This document shows positions 657-13,217 of a stretch of 20,416 bases of DNA, piece after piece (position 1 is the stretch's first letter; each line of letters opens with the position of its first letter). Made by a program: the position numbers and the translations under genes. Location: positions 1 to 20,416 of the forward strand of contig JBBCAX010000198.1 in assembly GCA_051382335.1 (NCBI GenBank), written 5' to 3'. The notes below the pieces were generated by a model. It searched no databases, was not told the DNA's origin, and saw only the letters and a list, made by a program, of their open reading frames with translations. The stretch is from Deltaproteobacteria bacterium TL4. Lineage in GTDB: Bacteria > SAR324 > NAC60-12.

Positions 657-1115
657 TTATGAACCATTAGAACGGTCCGGTAGGGTTTTATCGTCTTCTT
701 CTGAAAAGACCAAACCCACCTGTTTAAATCCTGAATTTTTAAAAATCAACATCAATTTGATTAAAAAACCATGGGGAACACGCTTATCCATTTGCAAGTA
801 CACCGGCCTTTTTTTATCGCTTAAACTCATCTGCGGCAAATGGGCTTCGAGTTCAGCAAAGCTCATCTGTTGTTCTGCCAAAGAAATGTTTAAGTCCACA
901 TCAACAGCGACAGGGAGGGGATCGTTTTCAGGTTTCGTTTCTGATTCTTTAAGTTCCCCTTGAGGTAATTCAATCAAGAGCGAGTGAGTCACAAGAGGGG
1001 CTGAAACCATGAAGGCAATCAATAACACCAAAAGGATATCCACAAACGGGGTAATATTGATTTCAGAGACCAAATCTTCTTTAAGTCGATGGGTACTTCT
1101 AAGTCTCTTTTTCAT
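657..1115 (-). CDS. tolR: TolR/ExbD family biopolymer transport protein
   Basis: EINITPFVDILLVLLIAFMVSAPL transmembrane segment with the conserved Asp; C-terminal VYLQMDKRVPHG...GFKQVGLV; overlaps the 3' end of tolQ. Confidence 0.9.
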   Translation of the reverse strand: MKKRLRSTHRLKEDLVSEINITPFVDILLVLLIAFMVSAPLVTHSLLIELPQGELKESETKPENDPLPVAVDVDLNISLAEQQMSFAELEAHLPQMSLSDKKRPVYLQMDKRVPHGFLIKLMLIFKNSGFKQVGLVFSEEDDKTLPDRSNGS

Positions 1116-1791
1116 CGAGAATCATCAATTGGAGTTGTAAGCGTTTCAGTAAGTGTAAAGAACAATACTCCATGGTTTCCAGCATCTCTCGAATCATTGC
1201 CCTGAAGAGGTTGAACCCCACTGACGAAGGAATCGCTGTCAATAGTCCGGCCGCTGTCGCAACAAGGGCTTCTGAGATTCCAGGCGCAATAACCGTTAAT
1301 TCTACTGACTTTAAAGCGGCAATGCTGTGAAAGGTATTGATGATTCCGACAACAGTTCCAAACAACCCTATAAAGGGTGCCACGACAGAAACTGTTGCCA
1401 TTAAGTTCTGTCCATGTCCCATGGTTTTTTCCTCGTGCACGATGATCGACTCAAAGAGACGTTCCAGCATCTCTAACAGTTCGAGTCGAACACGATATCC
1501 GGTTGCAGGATGTTGCTGAAAAAATTCGTGGATTTCTTTTTCTCCAGCAATATACATGTGTTTCAACGCACTGTCAGGAATAGAACCCAGCTTATCTCGA
1601 AAATGACTTAAATCAGGTTCGGATTCCAGGAGTTCGAGAAAGTACCGATTTTCTTTGCGCTTGCGTAACAATTCACGGTATTTGGAAATCCCCACTCCCC
1701 AAATCCAGACAGAAACCATGAATAACACGATTAAAACCGTCAACCCCAAGGGGCCTGCGGTAAAAAACGCCTGAACAAAAGCTGATTCCAT
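1099..1791 (-). CDS. tolQ: TolQ/ExbB/MotA family proton-channel protein
   Basis: APFIGLFGTVVGIINTF and IAPGISEALVATAAGLLTAIP signature helices plus an N-terminal TM helix. Confidence 0.92.
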   Translation of the reverse strand: MESAFVQAFFTAGPLGLTVLIVLFMVSVWIWGVGISKYRELLRKRKENRYFLELLESEPDLSHFRDKLGSIPDSALKHMYIAGEKEIHEFFQQHPATGYRVRLELLEMLERLFESIIVHEEKTMGHGQNLMATVSVVAPFIGLFGTVVGIINTFHSIAALKSVELTVIAPGISEALVATAAGLLTAIPSSVGFNLFRAMIREMLETMEYCSLHLLKRLQLQLMILDEKET

Positions 1792-1796
1792 ATGTG

Positions 1797-2537
1797 CTAT
1801 TCACTTTCTCTGAGCAGGATAGTAAACATCACCCGTCGATTGAGACTCCAGGCGTCTTCTCCCGAGCCAAAAACCGCAGGTTTTTCTTCACCAAAACTTA
1901 GAACTTCCATTAAGCGCTCGGGCTCATTGGCATAAACGCTTAAAAAGTTCAATATCGTCGTTGCCCGACGGTGTCCCAAGACGATATTGTATTCGGGGGT
2001 CCCACGTTCATCAGCATGCCCCTCAATTTGAAGGATCAAATCGCCTCGTTGTTCCAGTGCCGGTATAAGAAAACGCACAGCGTCTATCAGCGTGTCACGA
2101 AATGCTGGTTTCAAGAGGTTTTTATCAAAATCAAAATAGATTTGGGGAATCAGCTTGTCCGTTCGATCATCCCGTACAGAAGGAATATTCAGCGACTGAT
2201 AGTGTTTTAATTGCTGATAGATCTCATCCAACAAGGCTTGACGTTCCTCAATAGGAGGCAATTCGGGCGGTGTGTCGGTAGAAACTTTCGTCTTTCCACT
2301 CAACGAATTCTTCTTCAGTGAGGCCTCATACTGTTCCTCCATTTCTTGAATCATGCGTTCCTGTTCTTCAATAGCCCGAGCATAAGCTTGATCTTGCTCC
2401 TCAGCCGTTTGCGGTTGAGGGACCAGCTTTTTGGATTGCTCCACAGAAGAAGGCTGAGGCTTCAACGCCTTTTCAGCGCTACTACACCCCACACAAAGGA
2501 CAACACAACAAATAACTGCAAATAATTTAGATTTCAT
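1797..2537 (-). CDS. pal: Pal-like OmpA-domain peptidoglycan-associated lipoprotein with a long N-terminal coiled-coil extension
   Basis: Lipobox CVG-C; C-terminal IYFDFDK...IEGHADERGTPEYNIVLGHRRA...SFGEEKPA...AWSLNRRV typical of Pal; about 110 extra Q/E-rich residues before the OmpA domain. Confidence 0.8.
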   Translation of the reverse strand: MKSKLFAVICCVVLCVGCSSAEKALKPQPSSVEQSKKLVPQPQTAEEQDQAYARAIEEQERMIQEMEEQYEASLKKNSLSGKTKVSTDTPPELPPIEERQALLDEIYQQLKHYQSLNIPSVRDDRTDKLIPQIYFDFDKNLLKPAFRDTLIDAVRFLIPALEQRGDLILQIEGHADERGTPEYNIVLGHRRATTILNFLSVYANEPERLMEVLSFGEEKPAVFGSGEDAWSLNRRVMFTILLRESE

Positions 2538-3396: not shown

Positions 3397-5502
3397 TCAA
3401 AACCCGAATTGTGCCAAGAGGTCATCGACTTCATCCTGTCCTGCGACGCCTTTACCGGATTTGTGCTGGGGACCATACATCTGGACGTTGCTCTCGTCAA
3501 GATGCGTCGCCCTTTCAACGAGGTCTCCGTTTCCGCTAACCGGTTTTCCGATTTGTTCCTTCTCTTCATCACCCAGTCCCAGAGTGGTTCCAAAGGTTTT
3601 AACCAACGAAACCAATCTATTTTCCAGATCATCCACCAGCACTATGATTTTCTTGATCACCTGCCCCGTACGGTCCTGATAATCCTGGGCGGTCATAATG
3701 TCGTAAATTTTTGCGCTGACCTGTTTTTCGCGAGCCTTAACCATCTCAATAATCTGCAGGCTTTCTTCCAACTCCGTGCCTCCGGGTGAAGCTTTTGCGG
3801 CTTCAAGCAACTCTTTGAAACTCTCCATATCCGCAACGGTACTGTCTGACTCAATAACTAATTCTTCTGCCAAATCTAACGTGGTATTTGCCGATTTTTC
3901 TGTCATTTCAATGATATGCTCTAATCGGTGAGTCGCGTCAGGAATCTCTTCAAGAGCCATTTGCTGAAATTGTGAATCCAGTAAATTGGAAAAATCCTTC
4001 AAGCTTTCATGCATTTCACGAGCCATTGTTCCTACTTCTTTGAACAAGTCAACGTTGGCTATTTCAGAAAGCGTTAAGCTATTGTCCGGCCTATTTGGAT
4101 CTTGCCCTTCGATAAGAATTTTAACCGCGGCAAACACATTATTGAGGTGGTGTTTCAGTTCTGCGGTCTCTCTGGGGGTAATCGCGTCTCCCCCCATAAT
4201 ACTCTGAATCACTTCAGCCGAATAATGGATGGAATCCAAATCACCTCGAAGTTGTATTGGAACATCATGCGTTGTGATTTTTGAAACCGTGTTCACAAAG
4301 TTCGATTCAACCTGTTCTGGAAAAACGAGAATGAAAGAAGTCATTTCTCCAGGTGTTGACTCAATTCCAATATCTCCGCCAACGGATTCAATGTCCGCTT
4401 TCAGTTCTGGAAAATGAGCGCCCACTTCTCCATCTTCAACGGAATGCATAGACTCATGAAATAACAAATTCCACACTTCCTGTTCTGACATCGCATTCAG
4501 CGTATTCTCAGGAACAATCGCTTGTTCCAATGCCCTGTTTTTGATGACATCGGATCTTAAGCCTTTGCCATCATCCGCAATGGTGATTAGAAAATTTTCA
4601 CTTTCATTGGTGATATCAACATAGATGCGCCCTACCGATGATTTCTTTCGACGATTAATTGCGGACTCCAAACTGACATCTATCAAAAACTCTGTACATT
4701 GGAATAAAGCTTTTCTCAAGATGGGAAAGAGTGAATAATCACTTACCACACAACCCTCGTTAATCACTAATTCCACCTCTTTTCCATGAACAATCGCCCA
4801 TTGTCCTATCATCACCTTCAATTCCTCCAAAATCGAGGCCATCGACTCCGTATGTTGGGAGATTTCTTTAGTTTTCGCGGTGGAATAGACGTTTTCGCAG
4901 AGCGTAATACATCCATGAAGGTGATCCCGTATCGCCTCCAGGTCTCCAGAATACGTGATTTCCTCAAGTTCTTTCATTTCCCCCAAAAGTCGCTCCGAGT
5001 CCGCGGCAAACTTGTCCAATAAGGCAGGAGGGACAGAAACTTCAGAAGTTGCGGGTGCGGAGGAGGGCATGGCTGCTTGGCGAGGCAATGTGGCGGAGGT
5101 TTCGAACACGGGAAGTTCCTGCGCCGAGGCAAGCATTTGCATTTGCGCAACCAGCGGAGCCCATAAACTTCCCTGAACTTCACTCTCATGCTGTGATGAC
5201 CACTCTAACTGTTCCTGAATCAAAACCACGGCATTAAACAGTTTTTCGAACGCTGGAGAAGAAAGTGTCAGTTTCCCCTCATGTACCCCCTGCAGAAAAC
5301 TGGACATCGTTCTTGTGAGGACGGGGGTCTGTCGCAGAGAGGTCTGTGCCATCTCTGTAAATTGATCCAAATGCGTTGCCAGTTGAGTTACCAAGCCAAC
5401 ATTGTGACGATCCTGTTCAAGAACCACCAATTGCTCATCAATGGTTTTTAATAAAGGTGGCAACTGCCGCATTGCCTCTGTGGATAATGTCCCTCCACTC
5501 AT
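3397..5502 (-). CDS. Fusion of degenerate CheA (HPt-like, dimerisation and HATPase_c domains) with a C-terminal CheZ phosphatase
   Basis: aa ~485-701: LFKEVGTMAREMHESL, IPDATHRLEHIIEMTEKSANTTLD, IMTAQDYQDRTGQVIKKI and C-terminal QDEVDDLLAQFGF, all CheZ hallmarks. aa ~240-395: GKEVELVI...GRIYV...ITIADDGKGL..DVIKNRA...EVWNLLF...IESVGGDIGIESTPGEMTSFILVFP, a CheA P4 pattern. aa ~1-105 is HPt-like. SD-like AAGGGG precedes the ATG. Confidence 0.88.
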   Translation of the reverse strand: MSGGTLSTEAMRQLPPLLKTIDEQLVVLEQDRHNVGLVTQLATHLDQFTEMAQTSLRQTPVLTRTMSSFLQGVHEGKLTLSSPAFEKLFNAVVLIQEQLEWSSQHESEVQGSLWAPLVAQMQMLASAQELPVFETSATLPRQAAMPSSAPATSEVSVPPALLDKFAADSERLLGEMKELEEITYSGDLEAIRDHLHGCITLCENVYSTAKTKEISQHTESMASILEELKVMIGQWAIVHGKEVELVINEGCVVSDYSLFPILRKALFQCTEFLIDVSLESAINRRKKSSVGRIYVDITNESENFLITIADDGKGLRSDVIKNRALEQAIVPENTLNAMSEQEVWNLLFHESMHSVEDGEVGAHFPELKADIESVGGDIGIESTPGEMTSFILVFPEQVESNFVNTVSKITTHDVPIQLRGDLDSIHYSAEVIQSIMGGDAITPRETAELKHHLNNVFAAVKILIEGQDPNRPDNSLTLSEIANVDLFKEVGTMAREMHESLKDFSNLLDSQFQQMALEEIPDATHRLEHIIEMTEKSANTTLDLAEELVIESDSTVADMESFKELLEAAKASPGGTELEESLQIIEMVKAREKQVSAKIYDIMTAQDYQDRTGQVIKKIIVLVDDLENRLVSLVKTFGTTLGLGDEEKEQIGKPVSGNGDLVERATHLDESNVQMYGPQHKSGKGVAGQDEVDDLLAQFGF

Positions 5503-5608
5503 AGAATCCCCTTTTCGTTTTAAAACAGGTTATAATCCGTTGGCCCCCAAGGCGTTTTTACCCTCCTGGAATCTCATAACACCCTTACGCCGAAATTGTA
5601 AAGAGTTA

Positions 5609-5902
5609 TCATTTGCGAATTTCTTCGACAAGGGTTCCCACAATAGGTATTTGAACATAGCCCACATCTTCGGCCCAGAAATAATAGTACCCCAGGATTG
5701 CTCCATTTTCGTCTTTTCCCGTTGTGATTTTACCATCCAGAACTTTCCATGTTTTCACAACTTTCCCTTCTGAAATATAGGAAATCAGAAAATCTTTACC
5801 CAAAAGATTATCAGCGGAGCGGAAAAATCTATTTCTCGATTCCTCAGTACACCCCATCAGTAATAGAGAAAACAATGTGGTTATCAATAAAAAACGTCGC
5901 AT
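5609..5902 (-). CDS. Small hypothetical lipoprotein
   Basis: MRRFLLITTLFSLLLMG-C signal peptide and lipobox; AAGAGG SD upstream; same strand as the CheA-CheZ gene and about 107 bp upstream of it. Confidence 0.8.
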   Translation of the reverse strand: MRRFLLITTLFSLLLMGCTEESRNRFFRSADNLLGKDFLISYISEGKVVKTWKVLDGKITTGKDENGAILGYYYFWAEDVGYVQIPIVGTLVEEIRK

Positions 5903-6146: not shown

Positions 6147-6977
6147 ATGTCATTTATTATCGTTCATATTTCCGATCTGCATTTCAACAGTTATCCCAAA
6201 ACGTGGAAGGAGTGGTCTTCCAAGCGGGCCTTAGGCGCGTTCGGTCTCTTCGTTCGCCGTGCCAGAGAGTATCCGATTCAACGTGCCCAATGTTTGGTGA
6301 GGACACTGCAAGAGCGGCCCTGGGATCACTTGGTCATTACGGGTGATCTCACCTCCTTGGGCTTGGAACGTGAATTTGCTCTGGCTCGGGAAACATTGGC
6401 GCCTTTGCTGACGAATCCTGAAAAAGTCACCATAATCCCGGGAAATCACGATCGCTATGTCCAAGAGGCTTGTAATCCTGACTTATTTCAGCAATATTTT
6501 GGTCTTTTTTTTGATCCTTCCGGTTTTCAAGGAAAGCGGCTCAACGAAAACTGGCATCTCATCGGCTGGGATAGTACTCATCCCAATGATTGGTTGACTG
6601 CGGCAGGTACGGTTAAACGAACAACTTTGCTCCAAACTGAAAAATACATTCAAAGGCATTCTCCGGAATCCAGGTTTATTATCGCCAATCACTATCCTGT
6701 TTGGTTTCCTGAACATCACAAAATTCACCGACGTCATGAGTTACATAATCTTTTTCAAGTCCAGCAATGGCTCATGAAACAGTCTCAAATTCACCTATAC
6801 CTCCACGGACATGTTCATCGTAATTGGAATCGATGTATCCAAGGTTCTAACCAGTCTCTCTTCGTCGTCAACTCAGCCTCTTCAACCTCAACCTGCTTAC
6901 GAAATCAAGTGTCAACGTTTCATCAAATTAAGCTCCAAAAAAAGCATTTGTCTATTGAGCCTTTGTCTTACTCCTGA
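6147..6977 (+). CDS. Calcineurin-like metallophosphoesterase (Icc/CpdA-like)
   Basis: All five motifs are present: HISDLH, TGDL, PGNHD, NHYP, LHGHVH. Confidence 0.92.
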   Translation: MSFIIVHISDLHFNSYPKTWKEWSSKRALGAFGLFVRRAREYPIQRAQCLVRTLQERPWDHLVITGDLTSLGLEREFALARETLAPLLTNPEKVTIIPGNHDRYVQEACNPDLFQQYFGLFFDPSGFQGKRLNENWHLIGWDSTHPNDWLTAAGTVKRTTLLQTEKYIQRHSPESRFIIANHYPVWFPEHHKIHRRHELHNLFQVQQWLMKQSQIHLYLHGHVHRNWNRCIQGSNQSLFVVNSASSTSTCLRNQVSTFHQIKLQKKHLSIEPLSYS

Positions 6978-7919: not shown

Positions 7920-9404
7920 TTACATCAGTTGTTGCAGGATCTCCAGGATTTGTTGGTGATATCGTCCATCACTGACAATAATTCCCTTAATCCCTTCCAG
8001 CGTTTGCCCGTTAAACACCAAGGGTTGCCCTCGCGTATCTGTTACCAGGCCTCCCGCTTCAGTTACAAGCAAGAGTCCTGCCGCGTGATCCCAGGCGTTC
8101 TCAACCCATCCAGGTTGAATTCTCAGGTAGAGGGACGCGATCCCTGAGGCGAGGCAGGCGTATTTAACCTGACTGTCTAATTTCAAAGGGGGTATTTCAA
8201 TCCCCAGCCGTTTCAGGAGTTGGGGCAAAACAGAATTTTTTGAATGATTTTTTGATTCACAACTCATTAATTGATTCAAACTTCCTGTCCGGTTGACAGA
8301 GAGGAGTGTCTCTTTGGCGTTGGTCTCAATTCGGTAGGCACCAAAATTTTTTATAGCGTAAAAAATTTCTGCGGATAGCGGAGACAATTGGTTGAAGTTC
8401 GGACATCCCAAGACACTCATTTGCACCTCCCCTTTTTTGACCAGTGCCAAGGCAATGGCATATTGTTCGCCACTGATGAACCCTTTCGTGCCATCAATGG
8501 GATCCAGATACCATTGTCGTAACGCCTGCGGATTCCCTTTGTCTTCAAGCAACGTCATCATTTCCTCTTCAGAAATTTCCATCACAGTTTGCAACGAAGT
8601 CAGCACCACTTTTCTTAATTTTAAATTTTCCCGCAAGAGGGAGGAATCTTCTTCCGCAAAGACACGATCTTCAGGAAATTCCTTTTTTAGTGACTTTCGA
8701 ATGATGACCTGTCCACAGAGATCCGCGGCGGTCACGGGGGATTCATCTTGTTTGGTTTGGATATTTGTTGAGTTGAGGGTCTTCTGCATTTTCTGCAGTA
8801 ATTGTGAGGCGGTTTGAACAGCGCTGAGCGCTATTTCCAAGTCTTTCTGCCGATACACTCCAAAATAGGTTGTTTTGTTTTCTTGTCTTTCCTCATAACC
8901 GTCTTTTCTGAATTCATCATGATGCAGATCATATCTGAAGAGATGCGTTTCATAGATTGTTTTAAGTCCAGGATAAGATTGAGAATATTTTTCTTCGATT
9001 CGGGAGGTGCCTCTTTGAATTTCGCCAATAACGTCAAGTTGCAGTTCTTCCTGAAGGGCTCGTTTTGCACCCATTTCAGGAGTCTCCTGAAGCAGTAATT
9101 TTTCTGAGACCGAGGCTTCTAAAAATGATCGAACCCGTACCCGACCATCATTAAACTCCTGACGATCTTCACGGATGACATATCGTTGCCCCTCTTCAGT
9201 TTTGTAATGGACCCGAATGGAGACAACCCGAATCTTGCGGATCAGGGTCTTGTTCCGAATTTCCAAAAAAGTTTCACCATCTTGAAGCTCTTTCCACAGA
9301 TTTTCCAAAGTTTTTGCTTCGCCCACTCCAAAAAGTTGAGAGTTGATCCCATGGGATTCCATCACAGCTTCCAGTTCATTAATATTTGAAATATTCATAG
9401 GCAC
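7920..9404 (-). CDS. Two-domain protein: N-terminal Nudix-like domain fused to a HAL2/SAL1-type 3'(2'),5'-bisphosphate nucleotidase (inositol monophosphatase superfamily)
   Basis: C-terminal ~310 aa: KQDESPVTAAD, AEEDS, LDPIDGTKGF, EQYAIALAL, VLGCPN, LDSQVKY...YLR, WDHAAG..LVTEAGGLVTD. N-terminal ~182 aa contains the variant Nudix box EKLLLQETPEMGAKRALQEELQL. Start is GTG 9404 or ATG 9398. Confidence 0.88.
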   Translation of the reverse strand: MPMNISNINELEAVMESHGINSQLFGVGEAKTLENLWKELQDGETFLEIRNKTLIRKIRVVSIRVHYKTEEGQRYVIREDRQEFNDGRVRVRSFLEASVSEKLLLQETPEMGAKRALQEELQLDVIGEIQRGTSRIEEKYSQSYPGLKTIYETHLFRYDLHHDEFRKDGYEERQENKTTYFGVYRQKDLEIALSAVQTASQLLQKMQKTLNSTNIQTKQDESPVTAADLCGQVIIRKSLKKEFPEDRVFAEEDSSLLRENLKLRKVVLTSLQTVMEISEEEMMTLLEDKGNPQALRQWYLDPIDGTKGFISGEQYAIALALVKKGEVQMSVLGCPNFNQLSPLSAEIFYAIKNFGAYRIETNAKETLLSVNRTGSLNQLMSCESKNHSKNSVLPQLLKRLGIEIPPLKLDSQVKYACLASGIASLYLRIQPGWVENAWDHAAGLLLVTEAGGLVTDTRGQPLVFNGQTLEGIKGIIVSDGRYHQQILEILQQLM

Positions 9405-9765: not shown

Positions 9766-12024
9766 ATGTTTGAAACGATGGGGGGAATAATGACGAAGAG
9801 AAGAGGCACATTCTTTATGATTGTCGTTCTGGCAATCATGGTTACCACAGATCTATGCACCATGCTTTGGCTTCATTCGCTTCCCGTAGTGGTTGGTAGC
9901 CTCATGGAGAGCGTTGTTCTCACCGCAGTGATGGGACCAGCGCTGTATTTCGCGTTTTTAGTGCCATTACATTCTCAAATCAAAAAACTGCACCAAACTG
10001 AAGAGCAATTAAAGTCTGCCAATGCACAACTGAAACAATCGGTGTGGGAGCGAAACGATTCCTTAATCCAGGTCGACAAAAAACTGGCGCAAAGAGCGAA
10101 AGAGTTGAACCTCGTTGAACTAGAGAAACGGGTCAGTCAAGATCAATTTTACAACCTGACCTTAACCGCAAAGGATGCCATTCTTGGCATGGATGATAAA
10201 GGCTTGATTTATCTCTGGAATGACGCGGCAACCCGTATGTTTGGCTATAATCGAGAAGAAGCCTTGGGGAAGTCGCTGCATCAGCTCATTGCGCCGAAAA
10301 GATACCAGGAAAAAGCCGAGCAGGGATTGACGACGTTTTATAAAACAGGTTCCGGAATCTTGACTGAAAATACGTGCGAATACTGGGCACTGCGAAAAGA
10401 TGGCACCGAGTTTCCTGTAGAGTTATCGGTTTCAGGATTCAAAAATGGGGATCATTGGTTTGCGACAGGAATCATCAGGGATATCACGGATCGTAAGGAA
10501 GCGGAAAAAGAACGTAATATGCTGGCCATGGCCGTTCATCAAACGACAGAAGCGGTCCTTGTTACGGATGAACGGGGCCGACCCCAATACACCAACCCCG
10601 CTTTTGCGAAAATCACAGGTTTTAGTCCTGAGGAGATTTTCGAGGGTACGGACTCTCCCCTGAAACGGGCAGTGGAACATCACCCAATGTACCAGAAAGT
10701 CCTGGATACACTGAGTCAGGGTGAGCTTTGGAGTGGACAAGTAAAATTTTTTAAGAAAGCGGGTACGCCTTTTGTCGCAGACCTCACGATTTCTCCCATT
10801 CGTGATGAGAATCAGGTCATTGTTAACTATGTTGCTGTTATTTATGATGTGAGTCAAGAAATCGCATGGCAGCAGAGACAAGGGCAGACACAGCGGATCG
10901 AAGCCTTGGGAACCCTTGCGGGGGGGATTGCGCATGATTTTAATAATGTGTTAATGATCATCCTTGGATTCACAGAGCTACTTCTGCAAGAACGCAAATC
11001 GGAGCTAGACCATTTGTTTTTGAATAAAATCAAAAGCTCCGCCAGACGAGGCGCCGATTTGGTACGGCAAATTCTTACCTTTGCCCGCACAGAAAATGAA
11101 GAACTCGTCCCCAGTAATATTGTTCCTGTTGTCAAAGAATCGCTGAAGTTGATGAGAACGCTCATTCCAAAACAAGTCGAGCTGATTGAGGATATTTCTT
11201 CTTCATGTCCCTCCGTTGTGTGTGATACCACTCAGATTCATCAAATCATCATCAACTTATGCACCAATGCCTATCACTCAATTTCGGAAGATACCGGTCA
11301 AATACGTATTTCATTAAGGTCTGTGGAATTAGACGCGGAACACCCTGAACATCTGGGGTTAAAGTCAGGCTCCTACCTTCATTTACAAGTTCAGGATACG
11401 GGCTGCGGAATACCTCCTGAAAATATCGAGCGGATTTTTGACCCGTTTTTTACCACAAAACCCGTGAGTAAGGGAACCGGTTTGGGTTTAGCGGTTGTCT
11501 ATCGGATTTTGAACCGTCATCAGGGCATGATAACGGTTGATAGTATTGTAGGAAAAGGAACAACCTTTCATGTTTATCTGCCTACTGTCATGGAGAAACC
11601 TGCGAATCAAAATCTTGAAATGACGCTTCGAAAAGGAAATGAACGGATACTGATTGTTGATGATGAGGAAGAATTGTTGCTCCTGTACAATGAAAGTTTA
11701 GGCTGGTTGGGGTATCACATTACCGTCGCACGAAACGGTGAGGAAGCGTTTCAAATATTTTCTGAAAATCCAGATCAATTTGATCTGCTCTTTACAGACC
11801 ATAATATGCCTAAAATGACAGGCTTGGAACTCAGTCAGCGGATCTTGCGACTTAGAAAAAATCTTCCCGTCATCCTGGTTTCTGGTTTCAGCGAGCAGAT
11901 TTCCAAGGCTAAAATTGAGGCTTTAGGGATTAAACATTGGTATGATAAGCCTCTGAGAGCGACCTATCTAACACAAATCATCGGTGAAATTTTTGACAGA
12001 AAATCCGGTGGTGTCCCAGATTGA
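9766..12024 (+). CDS. Membrane-bound hybrid sensor histidine kinase (TM-PAS-PAS-HisKA-HATPase_c-REC)
   Basis: Two N-terminal TMs; PAS motifs [11 protein letters not shown]...[14 protein letters not shown]...RDITDRK and [12 protein letters not shown]-box [12 protein letters not shown]-box [26 protein letters not shown]; receiver ILIVDDE...[14 protein letters not shown]...KP. SD AGGAGG upstream. Confidence 0.95.
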
Positions 12025-12330
12025 CTTCCAAAAAACAGAAGAAAAGGAAGAAAAAAAGATGCCGTCGGATTTAGTCTATGCGACGGTCAAAAAAGAAAGA
12101 GAACAGGGCAGGGTGGTCTATGCTGTTCAGACCCTGGTCTTCGGAACTATGAGGATGCTGGGACTTTGGCTTGGCCATTCCAAAGTCAGCAAAACGCTCA
12201 ATACCTCTTTGTGGAGAGGCACAATGGTACCGATAGACACCAGAATTCACGGAAGGTTCGAAAGACCTACGACTTTTCTAAAAATTGGGAGGTCCACAAT
12301 GCGTGCTCTTATTTTGGGGCCTGGAACTAC
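12025..12330 (+). pseudogene. Degraded internal fragment of an IS1-family transposase with a frameshift
   Basis: MPSDLVYATVKKEREQGRVVYAVQTLVFGT...SKTLNTS in one frame continues as FVERHNGTDRHQNSRKVRKTYDFSKNWEVH in another frame. The shift is a one-base loss in the T-run at about 12208-12210 (ACC TCT TT GTG GAG). N- and C-termini are missing. Confidence 0.8.
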
Positions 12331-12368
12331 CCAAAAACCTCGAACACCTGGGCGGTGCGCTGGTCTGG

Positions 12369-13217
12369 CTATTCAGGAACCAGCCATTCCACACGGTAGC
12401 CGGCTTCCGTTTCCTGCGCAAGCAAGGGCGTCAGGTGGTTACAGAGATTTTGCATTTGTTCGTTTAAATGCCATGGCGGATTGACCACCAGAATTCCGCT
12501 TCCGTGCATTCCCCAGTCCGGTGCCGCTTTAGCTACCCAGAGCTCACTTCTCAGTATTTTGCGTAATCCGGACTGTTGAAAGGAATCCATCAGTATGGAG
12601 GAACGATCAATCGCATTGGCAAGCAGGGGATACCAGATGATAAAAATCCCCGCACTCCATTTTTTGTGAACTTCGGTAACCGTTCTGGCGATCAGAGCGT
12701 ACTCCTTTTTGTCTTCATAGGCGGGATCAATCAGCACGATTCCGCGTTTGACCTTGGGAGGGGTGAGTCCGATCAGACTTTGGAATCCATCCCGATGATA
12801 AAGCGAAACTCCCCGCTTTCCCCCCAGATTTGCCTTTAGAATTTCAAATTCGGTCGAGTGCAATTCCATCAATTGCAAAACGTCCTGCGGCCGTGACATA
12901 AAGGCCGCTACCATGGGAGAACCGGGATACCAGACCAGCGATTCCTCATGGTTGAGCGATTCAAGCAGGGAAAAATATTCGGACAGTTCCGCAAAGTGCT
13001 CACGGTGTTGCCAAAGACGAATAATCCCACTTTGAAATTCTTCCTTTTTTTTTGCCATGACGCTTCGGAGATCATAGCAACCCGCACCGGCATGGGTATC
13101 ATAGTAACAAAAAGGAGTCTCCTTTTTTTTCAAATGAGACAGGATGAGTGTCAGTGCTGTGTGTTTCAAAATATCTGCATGATTTCCAGCGTGAAACGCG
13201 TGTCGATAGCTTAACAT
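12369..13217 (-). CDS. rlmJ: 23S rRNA (adenine2030-N6)-methyltransferase RlmJ
   Basis: MLSYRHAFHAGNHADILKH, YYDTHAGAG, YPGSP, RGIVLIDPAYE, IWYP, GMHGSG..VVNPPW signature. Confidence 0.96.
   Translation of the reverse strand: MLSYRHAFHAGNHADILKHTALTLILSHLKKKETPFCYYDTHAGAGCYDLRSVMAKKKEEFQSGIIRLWQHREHFAELSEYFSLLESLNHEESLVWYPGSPMVAAFMSRPQDVLQLMELHSTEFEILKANLGGKRGVSLYHRDGFQSLIGLTPPKVKRGIVLIDPAYEDKKEYALIARTVTEVHKKWSAGIFIIWYPLLANAIDRSSILMDSFQQSGLRKILRSELWVAKAAPDWGMHGSGILVVNPPWHLNEQMQNLCNHLTPLLAQETEAGYRVEWLVPE

Follow-up and report, generated by a model that had tools for sequence, protein, structure and literature searches.

The genome of Deltaproteobacteria bacterium TL4, a member of the SAR324 lineage (assembly GCA_051382335.1; 6.6 Mb, 100% complete by markers), encodes a protein in which a CheZ phosphatase is joined to the degenerate remains of a CheA kinase. 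Its gene lies at positions 3397–5502 on the minus strand of contig JBBCAX010000198.1, whose entire 20,416 bases form the window analyzed here, and reads as a single open frame of 701 amino acids: a pseudo-CheA part (P1-P3-P4, no P5) followed by CheZ, as delineated by the open reading frame (ORF), Pfam, profile alignment and seven full-length family members. From its sequence, we are highly confident that this is a real fusion, dead as a kinase and active as a CheZ. By every sequence test the protein belongs to the CheZ family; it appears to be derived from CheA without itself being a CheA member, because the His, the N-box and P5 all fail. Why attach a phosphatase to a broken copy of the kinase it antagonizes? 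We tentatively propose that the dead CheA module docks this CheY-P phosphatase at one of the host's chemosensory complexes.

An intact phosphatase behind an eroded kinase

In its CheZ half the protein keeps all known catalytic and substrate-binding motifs. Pfam CheZ (PF04344) matches residues 485–701 with an E-value of 3.8e-41 and 141.6 bits, against a cut-off of 30.7, and covers model positions 2–203. Within the helical core (residues 483–640; 3583–4056, on the minus strand like all features of the gene), which is delimited by Pfam, alignment to the PDB and family conservation, D610 (3673–3675) and Q614 (3661–3663) align with D143 and Q147 of E. coli CheZ in PDB 1KMI and are invariant in all seven members. 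The tail (residues 673–701; 3400–3486) combines a YGPQH motif with the CheY-binding helix QDEVDDLLAQFGF, which aligns with the 1KMI tail; 20 of its 29 positions are invariant, and the helix is invariant across the family. The original prediction, made from the DNA letters, of a complete CheZ with catalytic D610/Q614 and a CheY-P-binding tail is thus borne out by Pfam, structure alignment and conservation. It had taken CheZ to be the last ~215 residues, and here it placed the start too late: BLASTP matches the stand-alone CheZ P0293 from that protein's residue 1, and the CheZ part starts at about residue 436 instead of 485, retaining the N-terminal extension of stand-alone CheZs (residues 436–482; 4057–4197). 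The NCBIfam CheZ equivalog gives a partial match of 94.6 bits, far under its cut-off of 257. The aromatic residues at the hairpin tip of E. coli CheZ are absent, WDDWFADP being aligned with ELLEAAKASP in the 1KMI comparison.

The N-terminal half had been predicted to follow the CheA layout of P1, linker, P3 and P4, and a family profile set against a profile of 18 true CheAs agrees: residues 14–398 align at hhalign P=99.96 (E 9.6e-39), with low-confidence columns across P3, and the alignment stops where P5 begins. A phmmer search of the PDB matches residues 234–442 to T. maritima-type CheA structures (P4), ESM Atlas neighbors of residues 1–400 carry HATPase_c, mostly together with Hpt, and the NCBIfam CheA match is partial and far under its cut-off. 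When the domain search suggested with the original prediction was run, CheZ exceeded its Pfam cut-off, HATPase_c (residues 279–397, E 4.2e-5, 24.4 bits) fell slightly under its cut-off of 26.4, and neither Hpt nor H-kinase_dim (PF02895) matched the fusion protein even at E 10.

P1 as well as P4 is eroded. We take the helix names, the labels His48, Lys51, His67 and Glu70 and the names of the ATP-site boxes from convention, mapped onto the protein through PDB and profile alignments. The pseudo-P1 (HPt fold, residues 12–126; 5125–5469), recognized as P1 by profile alignment (residues 14–125) and by its Atlas neighbors, is conserved in helices A and D and not in B and C. The His48, Lys51 and Glu70 positions are occupied by D46 (5365–5367), T49 and S67; across the seven members the His48 column runs D, D, H, H, Q, E, D, so that two have His, and none retains the expected residue at the Lys51, His67 or Glu70 position. 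P1 is therefore also dead, an erosion that the original prediction overlooked. In the pseudo-P4 (HATPase_c fold, residues 219–395; 4318–4848), which ends where P5 would begin, the N-box Asn is replaced by F272 (4687–4689) and by F or Y in 7/7 members, G2 retains one Gly, the G3 Gly has become M or F, and the ATP lid is about four residues shorter; the register of the F-box in the CheA alignment is ambiguous by one residue. Only G1, DDGxG (DDGKG at residues 310–314), is invariant in all seven, so that the predicted loss of the N-box Asn, erosion of G2 and survival of G1 alone hold for the whole family. The absence of P5 and P2 stands as well: the CheA alignment ends at residue 398, no CheW match was found in the protein, and the variable Pro/Ala/Ser linker (residues 127–157; 5032–5124; 13% mean pairwise identity) is, at 31 residues, too short to hold P2.

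Between linker and pseudo-P4 lies a P3-like segment (residues 158–205; 4888–5031), assigned by position and low-confidence profile columns, with a hairpin shorter than that of CheA P3 and a family motif, E-x5-Y-[AS]-G-[DE]-x4-R-x5-C-x3-C-E. C198 (4909–4911) is present in 7/7 members and C202 (4897–4899) in 6/7, in proteins that hold just 2–5 cysteines per ~700 residues, and C-x3-C occurs in none of the 136 true-CheA P3 segments located by pattern. With the His, the N-box Asn, most of G2 and G3 and P5 lost, the kinase half looks dead.

A small family and a second, more eroded group

Full-length orthologues without internal stops occur in two other SAR324 genomes, which we call G008 and G009. 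Counting TL4, the fusion is present in 3 of the 88 SAR324 genomes searched, many of them incomplete, and these belong to three genera within a single family. Protein searches add P0002, P0004, P0102 and P0249/P0005, giving seven full-length members at 43–53% identity to the query, plus one N-terminal fragment. Mean identity over the seven is 63% in the CheZ core, 47% in pseudo-P4, 41% in the P3-like segment, 37% in pseudo-P1 and 13–22% in the linkers. For the three genes with DNA, identity at P4 codon positions 1/2/3 is 0.59/0.76/0.40, and 34 of 90 four-fold sites in P4 are identical, near saturation. The codon-position pattern and the domain conservation indicate that the dead CheA domains are old and under purifying selection. 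A recent decaying pseudogene is ruled out by the same codon pattern and the saturated silent sites, and an assembly or read-through artifact by a frame that is open and full-length in TL4, G008, G009 and four more proteins; the predicted single-gene fusion is thereby confirmed, and, far from always being two genes, the family has seven full-length fused members.

A search with the N-terminal profile over 1.84 billion representatives returned seven matches at E ≤1e-30. Five are family proteins, one is a true CheA and one a fragment of 169 aa from a 1.6-kb contig; neither a split form nor a kinase-intact intermediate was among them. The search for longer forms found only the seven family proteins and is weak, having also missed a CheZ-CheA fusion in G008 that we describe below; a metagenome scan with the SAR324 family alignment confirmed 0 of 445 pattern matches.

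Among the CheZ sequences found, the nearest are proteins of 400–482 amino acids from Syntrophobacteria (430–480 there) and other deltaproteobacteria, annotated only as CheZ. They begin with a region similar to CheA P1 (hhalign P=92, E 5.6e-7), in which a loose threshold brings up Pfam Hpt for 4 of 21 members, and a 45-residue segment preceding CheZ aligns with the end of P4, its final helix and two strands (P=88, score 38.7; the highest score in 40 column shuffles was 18.6). The junction to CheZ coincides with that of the SAR324 proteins, and P3 and the ATP pocket are missing. The canonical His column is empty of His in all 67 rows of the group, 40 of which carry a His three residues further on that may be a Lys51-to-His change or the displaced original; the DxxxQ pattern stands in 56 of the 67. 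When metagenomes were scanned for proteins of this type, 316 of 598 pattern matches were confirmed and 80 loci kept, from which 16 other CheZs and 13 partial sequences were set aside, leaving 51 loci and 46 distinct proteins. At 47 of these loci the gene lies directly behind cheA (45 by script, two by inspection); two of the remaining four have too little upstream DNA and two have no adjacent cheA. In Desulfacinum hydrothermale (locus L038) the order is cheR, cheD, cheY, cheX, cheB, cheY, cheA and then the eroded fusion. The D. hydrothermale protein shares with the SAR324 fusion a P1-like domain without the canonical His, the P4 end and the junction, and is among the nearest CheZ sequences found; it differs in that P3 and the ATP pocket are deleted and its gene still sits in an operon behind an intact F7 cheA. 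A D. hydrothermale CheA as long as the one beside the eroded fusion (744 aa) is classed as F7 (supplement of PMC10782961). Separately, the F7 CheA beside the eroded fusion (L038:4810–7041, and in L039–L042) bears an extra N-terminal HPt-like domain, and the survey table gives that F7 CheA as Hpt,Hpt (PMC10782961).

CheZ trees recover the SAR324 and Syntrophobacteria groups as strong clades (100/100 and 100/99), and with 73 rows their sisterhood has an SH-aLRT of 97, which drops once 90 rows are used; the trees back a single origin moderately. We consider it likely that both share one origin, the loss of P5 from a cheA-cheZ pair: an in-frame P5 loss would have fused cheZ to the spare cheA copy that preceded it, after which the SAR324 lineage would have retained P1-P3-P4 while the gene moved out of its operon, and in the Syntrophobacteria lineage nothing but the P1-like domain and the closing alpha-beta-beta unit of P4 would have survived. 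Alternatively, there may have been two parallel fusions, one in each group.

Proposed docking at a chemosensory complex and competing explanations

To our knowledge, enteric bacteria and Helicobacter are the only cases in which the localization and regulation of CheZ are understood. In TL4, 34 ORFs match the CheA core, 30 of them with the N-box Asn (26 by pattern, four by eye) and the other four comprising one unchecked, one ordinary hybrid kinase and two degenerate sequences; H-kinase_dim has 12 matches. There are three CheZ genes, the fusion and two more, and the supply of ordinary CheZ is independent of the fusion gene. With this many CheA cores, three CheZs and a flagellar set, pathway specificity is a real need. 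We suggest that the protein dimerizes through CheZ and probably also through its own P3-like hairpins, and that the conserved back face of pseudo-P1 (helices A and D), the new P3 motif, or both would bind a cognate CheA or its array, so that the phosphatase would act at one of the genome's many chemosensory systems. The role would probably be that of CheA-short for E. coli CheZ, here made covalent.

The pattern of conservation within pseudo-P1 is consistent with such docking. In the SAR324 family helix D is best conserved (0.65), followed by A (0.50), B (0.28), the B-C loop (0.22) and C (0.18), the reverse of the 18 true CheAs (helix B 0.44, D 0.24); because the two sets are of unequal depth, we read only the pattern and not the values. 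In the inhibited T. maritima kinase P1 touches P4 through helix D (10.1101/2020.03.27.011866), and the A/D pattern thus points to a preserved P1-P4-type contact, either with a true CheA, as docking would have it, or within the molecule, as a locked kinase-off shape. The docking through P1 that the original prediction had suggested fits this pattern. E. coli CheZ binds CheA-short through the aromatic residues of its hairpin tip, and this CheA-short site is reportedly missing from delta-type CheZs (PMC7750401); because the tip here is without that aromatic contact, another tether is plausible. We also count in favor of docking that a P1-like domain persists in the Syntrophobacteria group, and other lineages likewise join CheZ to array parts, as in CheW-CheZ proteins and the CheZ-CheA of G008.

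Several observations weigh against this proposal. P5, the usual array anchor, is exactly what was lost. Contact with the fusion's own pseudo-P4 could account for the conserved A/D face: helix D shows no special conservation (0.25) in the Syntrophobacteria group, which has little of P4, and there the stretch from the end of helix B through the B-C loop is best kept (0.31). The gene is an orphan, outside any chemotaxis operon in all three genomes checked (TL4, G008 and G009), and a search of TL4 for the donor or partner CheA gave no clear winner among 26 proteins. As to the shared origin, sisterhood of the two groups with 90 rows has support of 83/42 and appears in 76% of 200 bootstrap trees, and direct P1-to-P1 similarity between them is weak (P=17.7, E 0.0014).

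Could the dead module serve the phosphatase without any partner? The leading rival to docking, possible if doubtful, is that the P1-P3-P4 dimer is a self-contained allosteric switch that senses a signal and tunes the attached CheZ; the signal might be a metal or the thiol redox state, read at H194/C198/C202, or an adenine nucleotide bound at the surviving G1 Asp. The near-invariant cysteines, foreign to the CheA P3 segments compared, the invariant DDGxG, the orphan gene and the precedent of DivL, a kinase core reused as a sensor (PMC4211667), all speak for it. The cysteines, however, are spaced as in a helix core and could simply serve packing, DDGxG could have a structural role, an aromatic at the Asn site and Met or Phe at the G3 Gly would crowd the pocket, and the Syntrophobacteria group lacks the entire region. 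In a more specific version, which we regard as unlikely, a dimer locked in the kinase-off state gates CheZ through a new His/Cys-x3-Cys redox or metal site, and the SAR324 fusion is the least eroded member of an unrecognized SAR324/Desulfobacterota family of phosphatases derived from CheA; if true, the gated CheZ would be a receptor-independent input to chemotaxis through the phosphatase. Nor do we find it probable that the CheA part is a structural relic, kept only for the folding or solubility of the fused protein and being lost stepwise. The Syntrophobacteria group, which lost P3 and most of P4 while its CheZ still looks intact, and the small size of the family would suit such a relic, but pseudo-P4 is conserved about like other best-match protein pairs between these genomes (mostly 40–57%), polar surface-type positions are invariant (Q96, E97, Q98, E100, R192, R263, R284), and the linker sets apart a CheZ that folds alone in other bacteria.

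Two further explanations involve a second protein. P1 alone can bind its CheY through helices A and B and the B-C loop (PMC2817712), and a His-less P1 might capture a chosen CheY or CheY-P and pass it to CheZ for substrate specificity. The conservation of helix A agrees with this, as do the well-kept helix B end and B-C loop and the shifted His of the Syntrophobacteria group; in the SAR324 family, however, helix B and the B-C loop are among the least conserved parts, and CheZ already has a CheY-binding tail of its own, which makes capture improbable to us. The original prediction had also suggested heterodimerization with a true CheA through P3, yielding an inhibited, phosphatase-bearing heterodimer. 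CheA subunits can exchange through P3 in vitro (10.1101/2020.03.27.011866), and the P3-like segment is in the right place and conserved within the family (41% mean identity). That model now seems very improbable: H-kinase_dim finds 12 true copies in the genome and does not match the fusion, the hairpin is shorter, its motif has diverged from that of CheA, the Syntrophobacteria group has no P3, and the CheZ dimer should favor self-pairing.

Genomic setting, known systems and significance

Around the gene, a Shine-Dalgarno-like AGGGG (5508–5512, minus strand), seen in the sequence, lies 5 nt before the start ATG, a start position shared by the homologues. Scans of the 106-nt upstream gap for a sigma-70-like site and of the 3' end for a terminator found neither, with counts near chance. 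A small lipoprotein-like gene upstream (5609–5902, minus strand) and a divergent metallophosphoesterase gene (6147–6977, plus strand) recur beside the fusion in G009 only, the former also upstream of the orthologue there and the latter syntenic in G009 and not in G008. A 203-aa protein with a weak HPt-like C-terminal half is encoded near the fusion gene in G009 (L035:5821–6429, minus strand) and elsewhere in TL4 (contig C160:11821–12459). The window also holds one run of OmpA/Pal-like, MotA/TolQ/ExbB and ExbD/TolR genes (657–2537, minus strand), an inositol-monophosphatase-family protein with an unrecognized ~185-aa N-terminal domain (7920–9404, minus strand) and fragments at 1–456 and 11984–12484 (both plus strand) that resemble insertion-sequence transposase remnants.

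Elsewhere in the TL4 genome, 11 flagellin N-domain and 12 FliM/N-domain matches point to multiple flagellins and to at least two flagellar or secretion sets. Another CheA-like kinase in the genome is degenerate too (C345:1911–3503, minus strand): it has Tyr for the N-box Asn, keeps DDG and has lost G2, with neither P5 nor CheZ. In an unusually large set of about 17 CheA-like kinases the CheA-core match ends before P5, several having receiver or sensor-like N-termini (contigs C84, C150, C250, C281, C322, C238, C135, C388, C435, C30, C267, C401, C77 and C336). A widespread SAR324 clade of CheZs of 350–480 aa has an unrecognized ~170-aa N-terminal domain (L003:1501–2718, minus strand; TL4 contig C112; L063–L074), and where inspected these genes lie mostly outside chemotaxis operons.

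Other chemosensory proteins resemble the fusion in part. E. coli CheZ shares its core, DxxxQ and C-terminal helix and is partnered with a His-less form of CheA (1KMI; PMC7750401), whereas the TL4 protein makes the partnership covalent, has an eroded ATP site and no P5, and is without the aromatic CheA-short contact at its CheZ tip. CheA3 of Rhodobacter (Cereibacter) sphaeroides likewise combines a degenerate, non-functional P3-P4 kinase core (PMC10782961) with CheY-P phosphatase activity (PMC6829392), but its P1 can still be phosphorylated, P5 is present, CheA4 is its working partner, and the phosphatase is something other than CheZ (PMC10782961, PMC6829392). The CheA-CheC/CheX fusions reported in Leptospirae also place kinase and CheY phosphatase domains in one chain, but count as full CheAs with all four core domains and use another phosphatase family (PMC10782961). 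Caulobacter DivL is a histidine kinase without His or catalysis that is kept for binding; unlike the fusion it is a class I kinase (DHp-CA) with no attached phosphatase, and it has been shown to bind DivK-P (PMC4211667). Among the sequences collected here, CheW-CheZ fusions of ~400 aa (P0312, P0316, P0318, P0323, P0324 and P0326; L144) also carry CheZ behind an array component, but the tether is a CheW domain, the module absent from our protein, and they form a separate branch of the CheZ tree. G008 encodes in addition, on contig C55 (L034:9502–12948, minus strand), a 1149-aa frame of the opposite order, with an N-terminal CheZ followed by an intact CheA (Hpt with its His, P3, P4 with all boxes, P5) and then cheW; it is kinase-competent by sequence, its CheZ sits on another tree branch, and it is known from one genome and possibly results from loss of a stop codon.

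In the literature searched, which left out most subscription papers, we found no natural CheA-CheZ fusion or HPt-bearing CheZ. The claim of the original prediction that none had been described stands to that extent, although CheA3 and the CheA-CheC/CheX proteins lower its novelty. In a survey of 13,673 CheAs, P1, P3, P4 and P5 are universal, with a P5/CheW domain in 100%, and the term CheZ is absent from its architecture table (PMC10782961); the accessible portion of 10.1101/2022.05.07.491037 mentions no CheZ fusion. Because the survey treats P5 as core to every CheA, proteins without P5 are easily missed, and the named members of the family are labeled plain CheZ.

New in this analysis are the Syntrophobacteria remnant forms, until now annotated as CheZ only. 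Intact cheA-cheZ neighbors, a dead three-domain fusion and a two-remnant fusion mark stages in the passage from kinase to phosphatase accessory, and the presence of the eroded form in the cultured Desulfacinum hydrothermale DSM 13146 makes the idea testable. The family offers a concrete answer to how CheZ is targeted in cells with many parallel chemosensory systems, and it suggests that what is left of a kinase has been put to new use as a docking or control module for the very phosphatase that opposes it.

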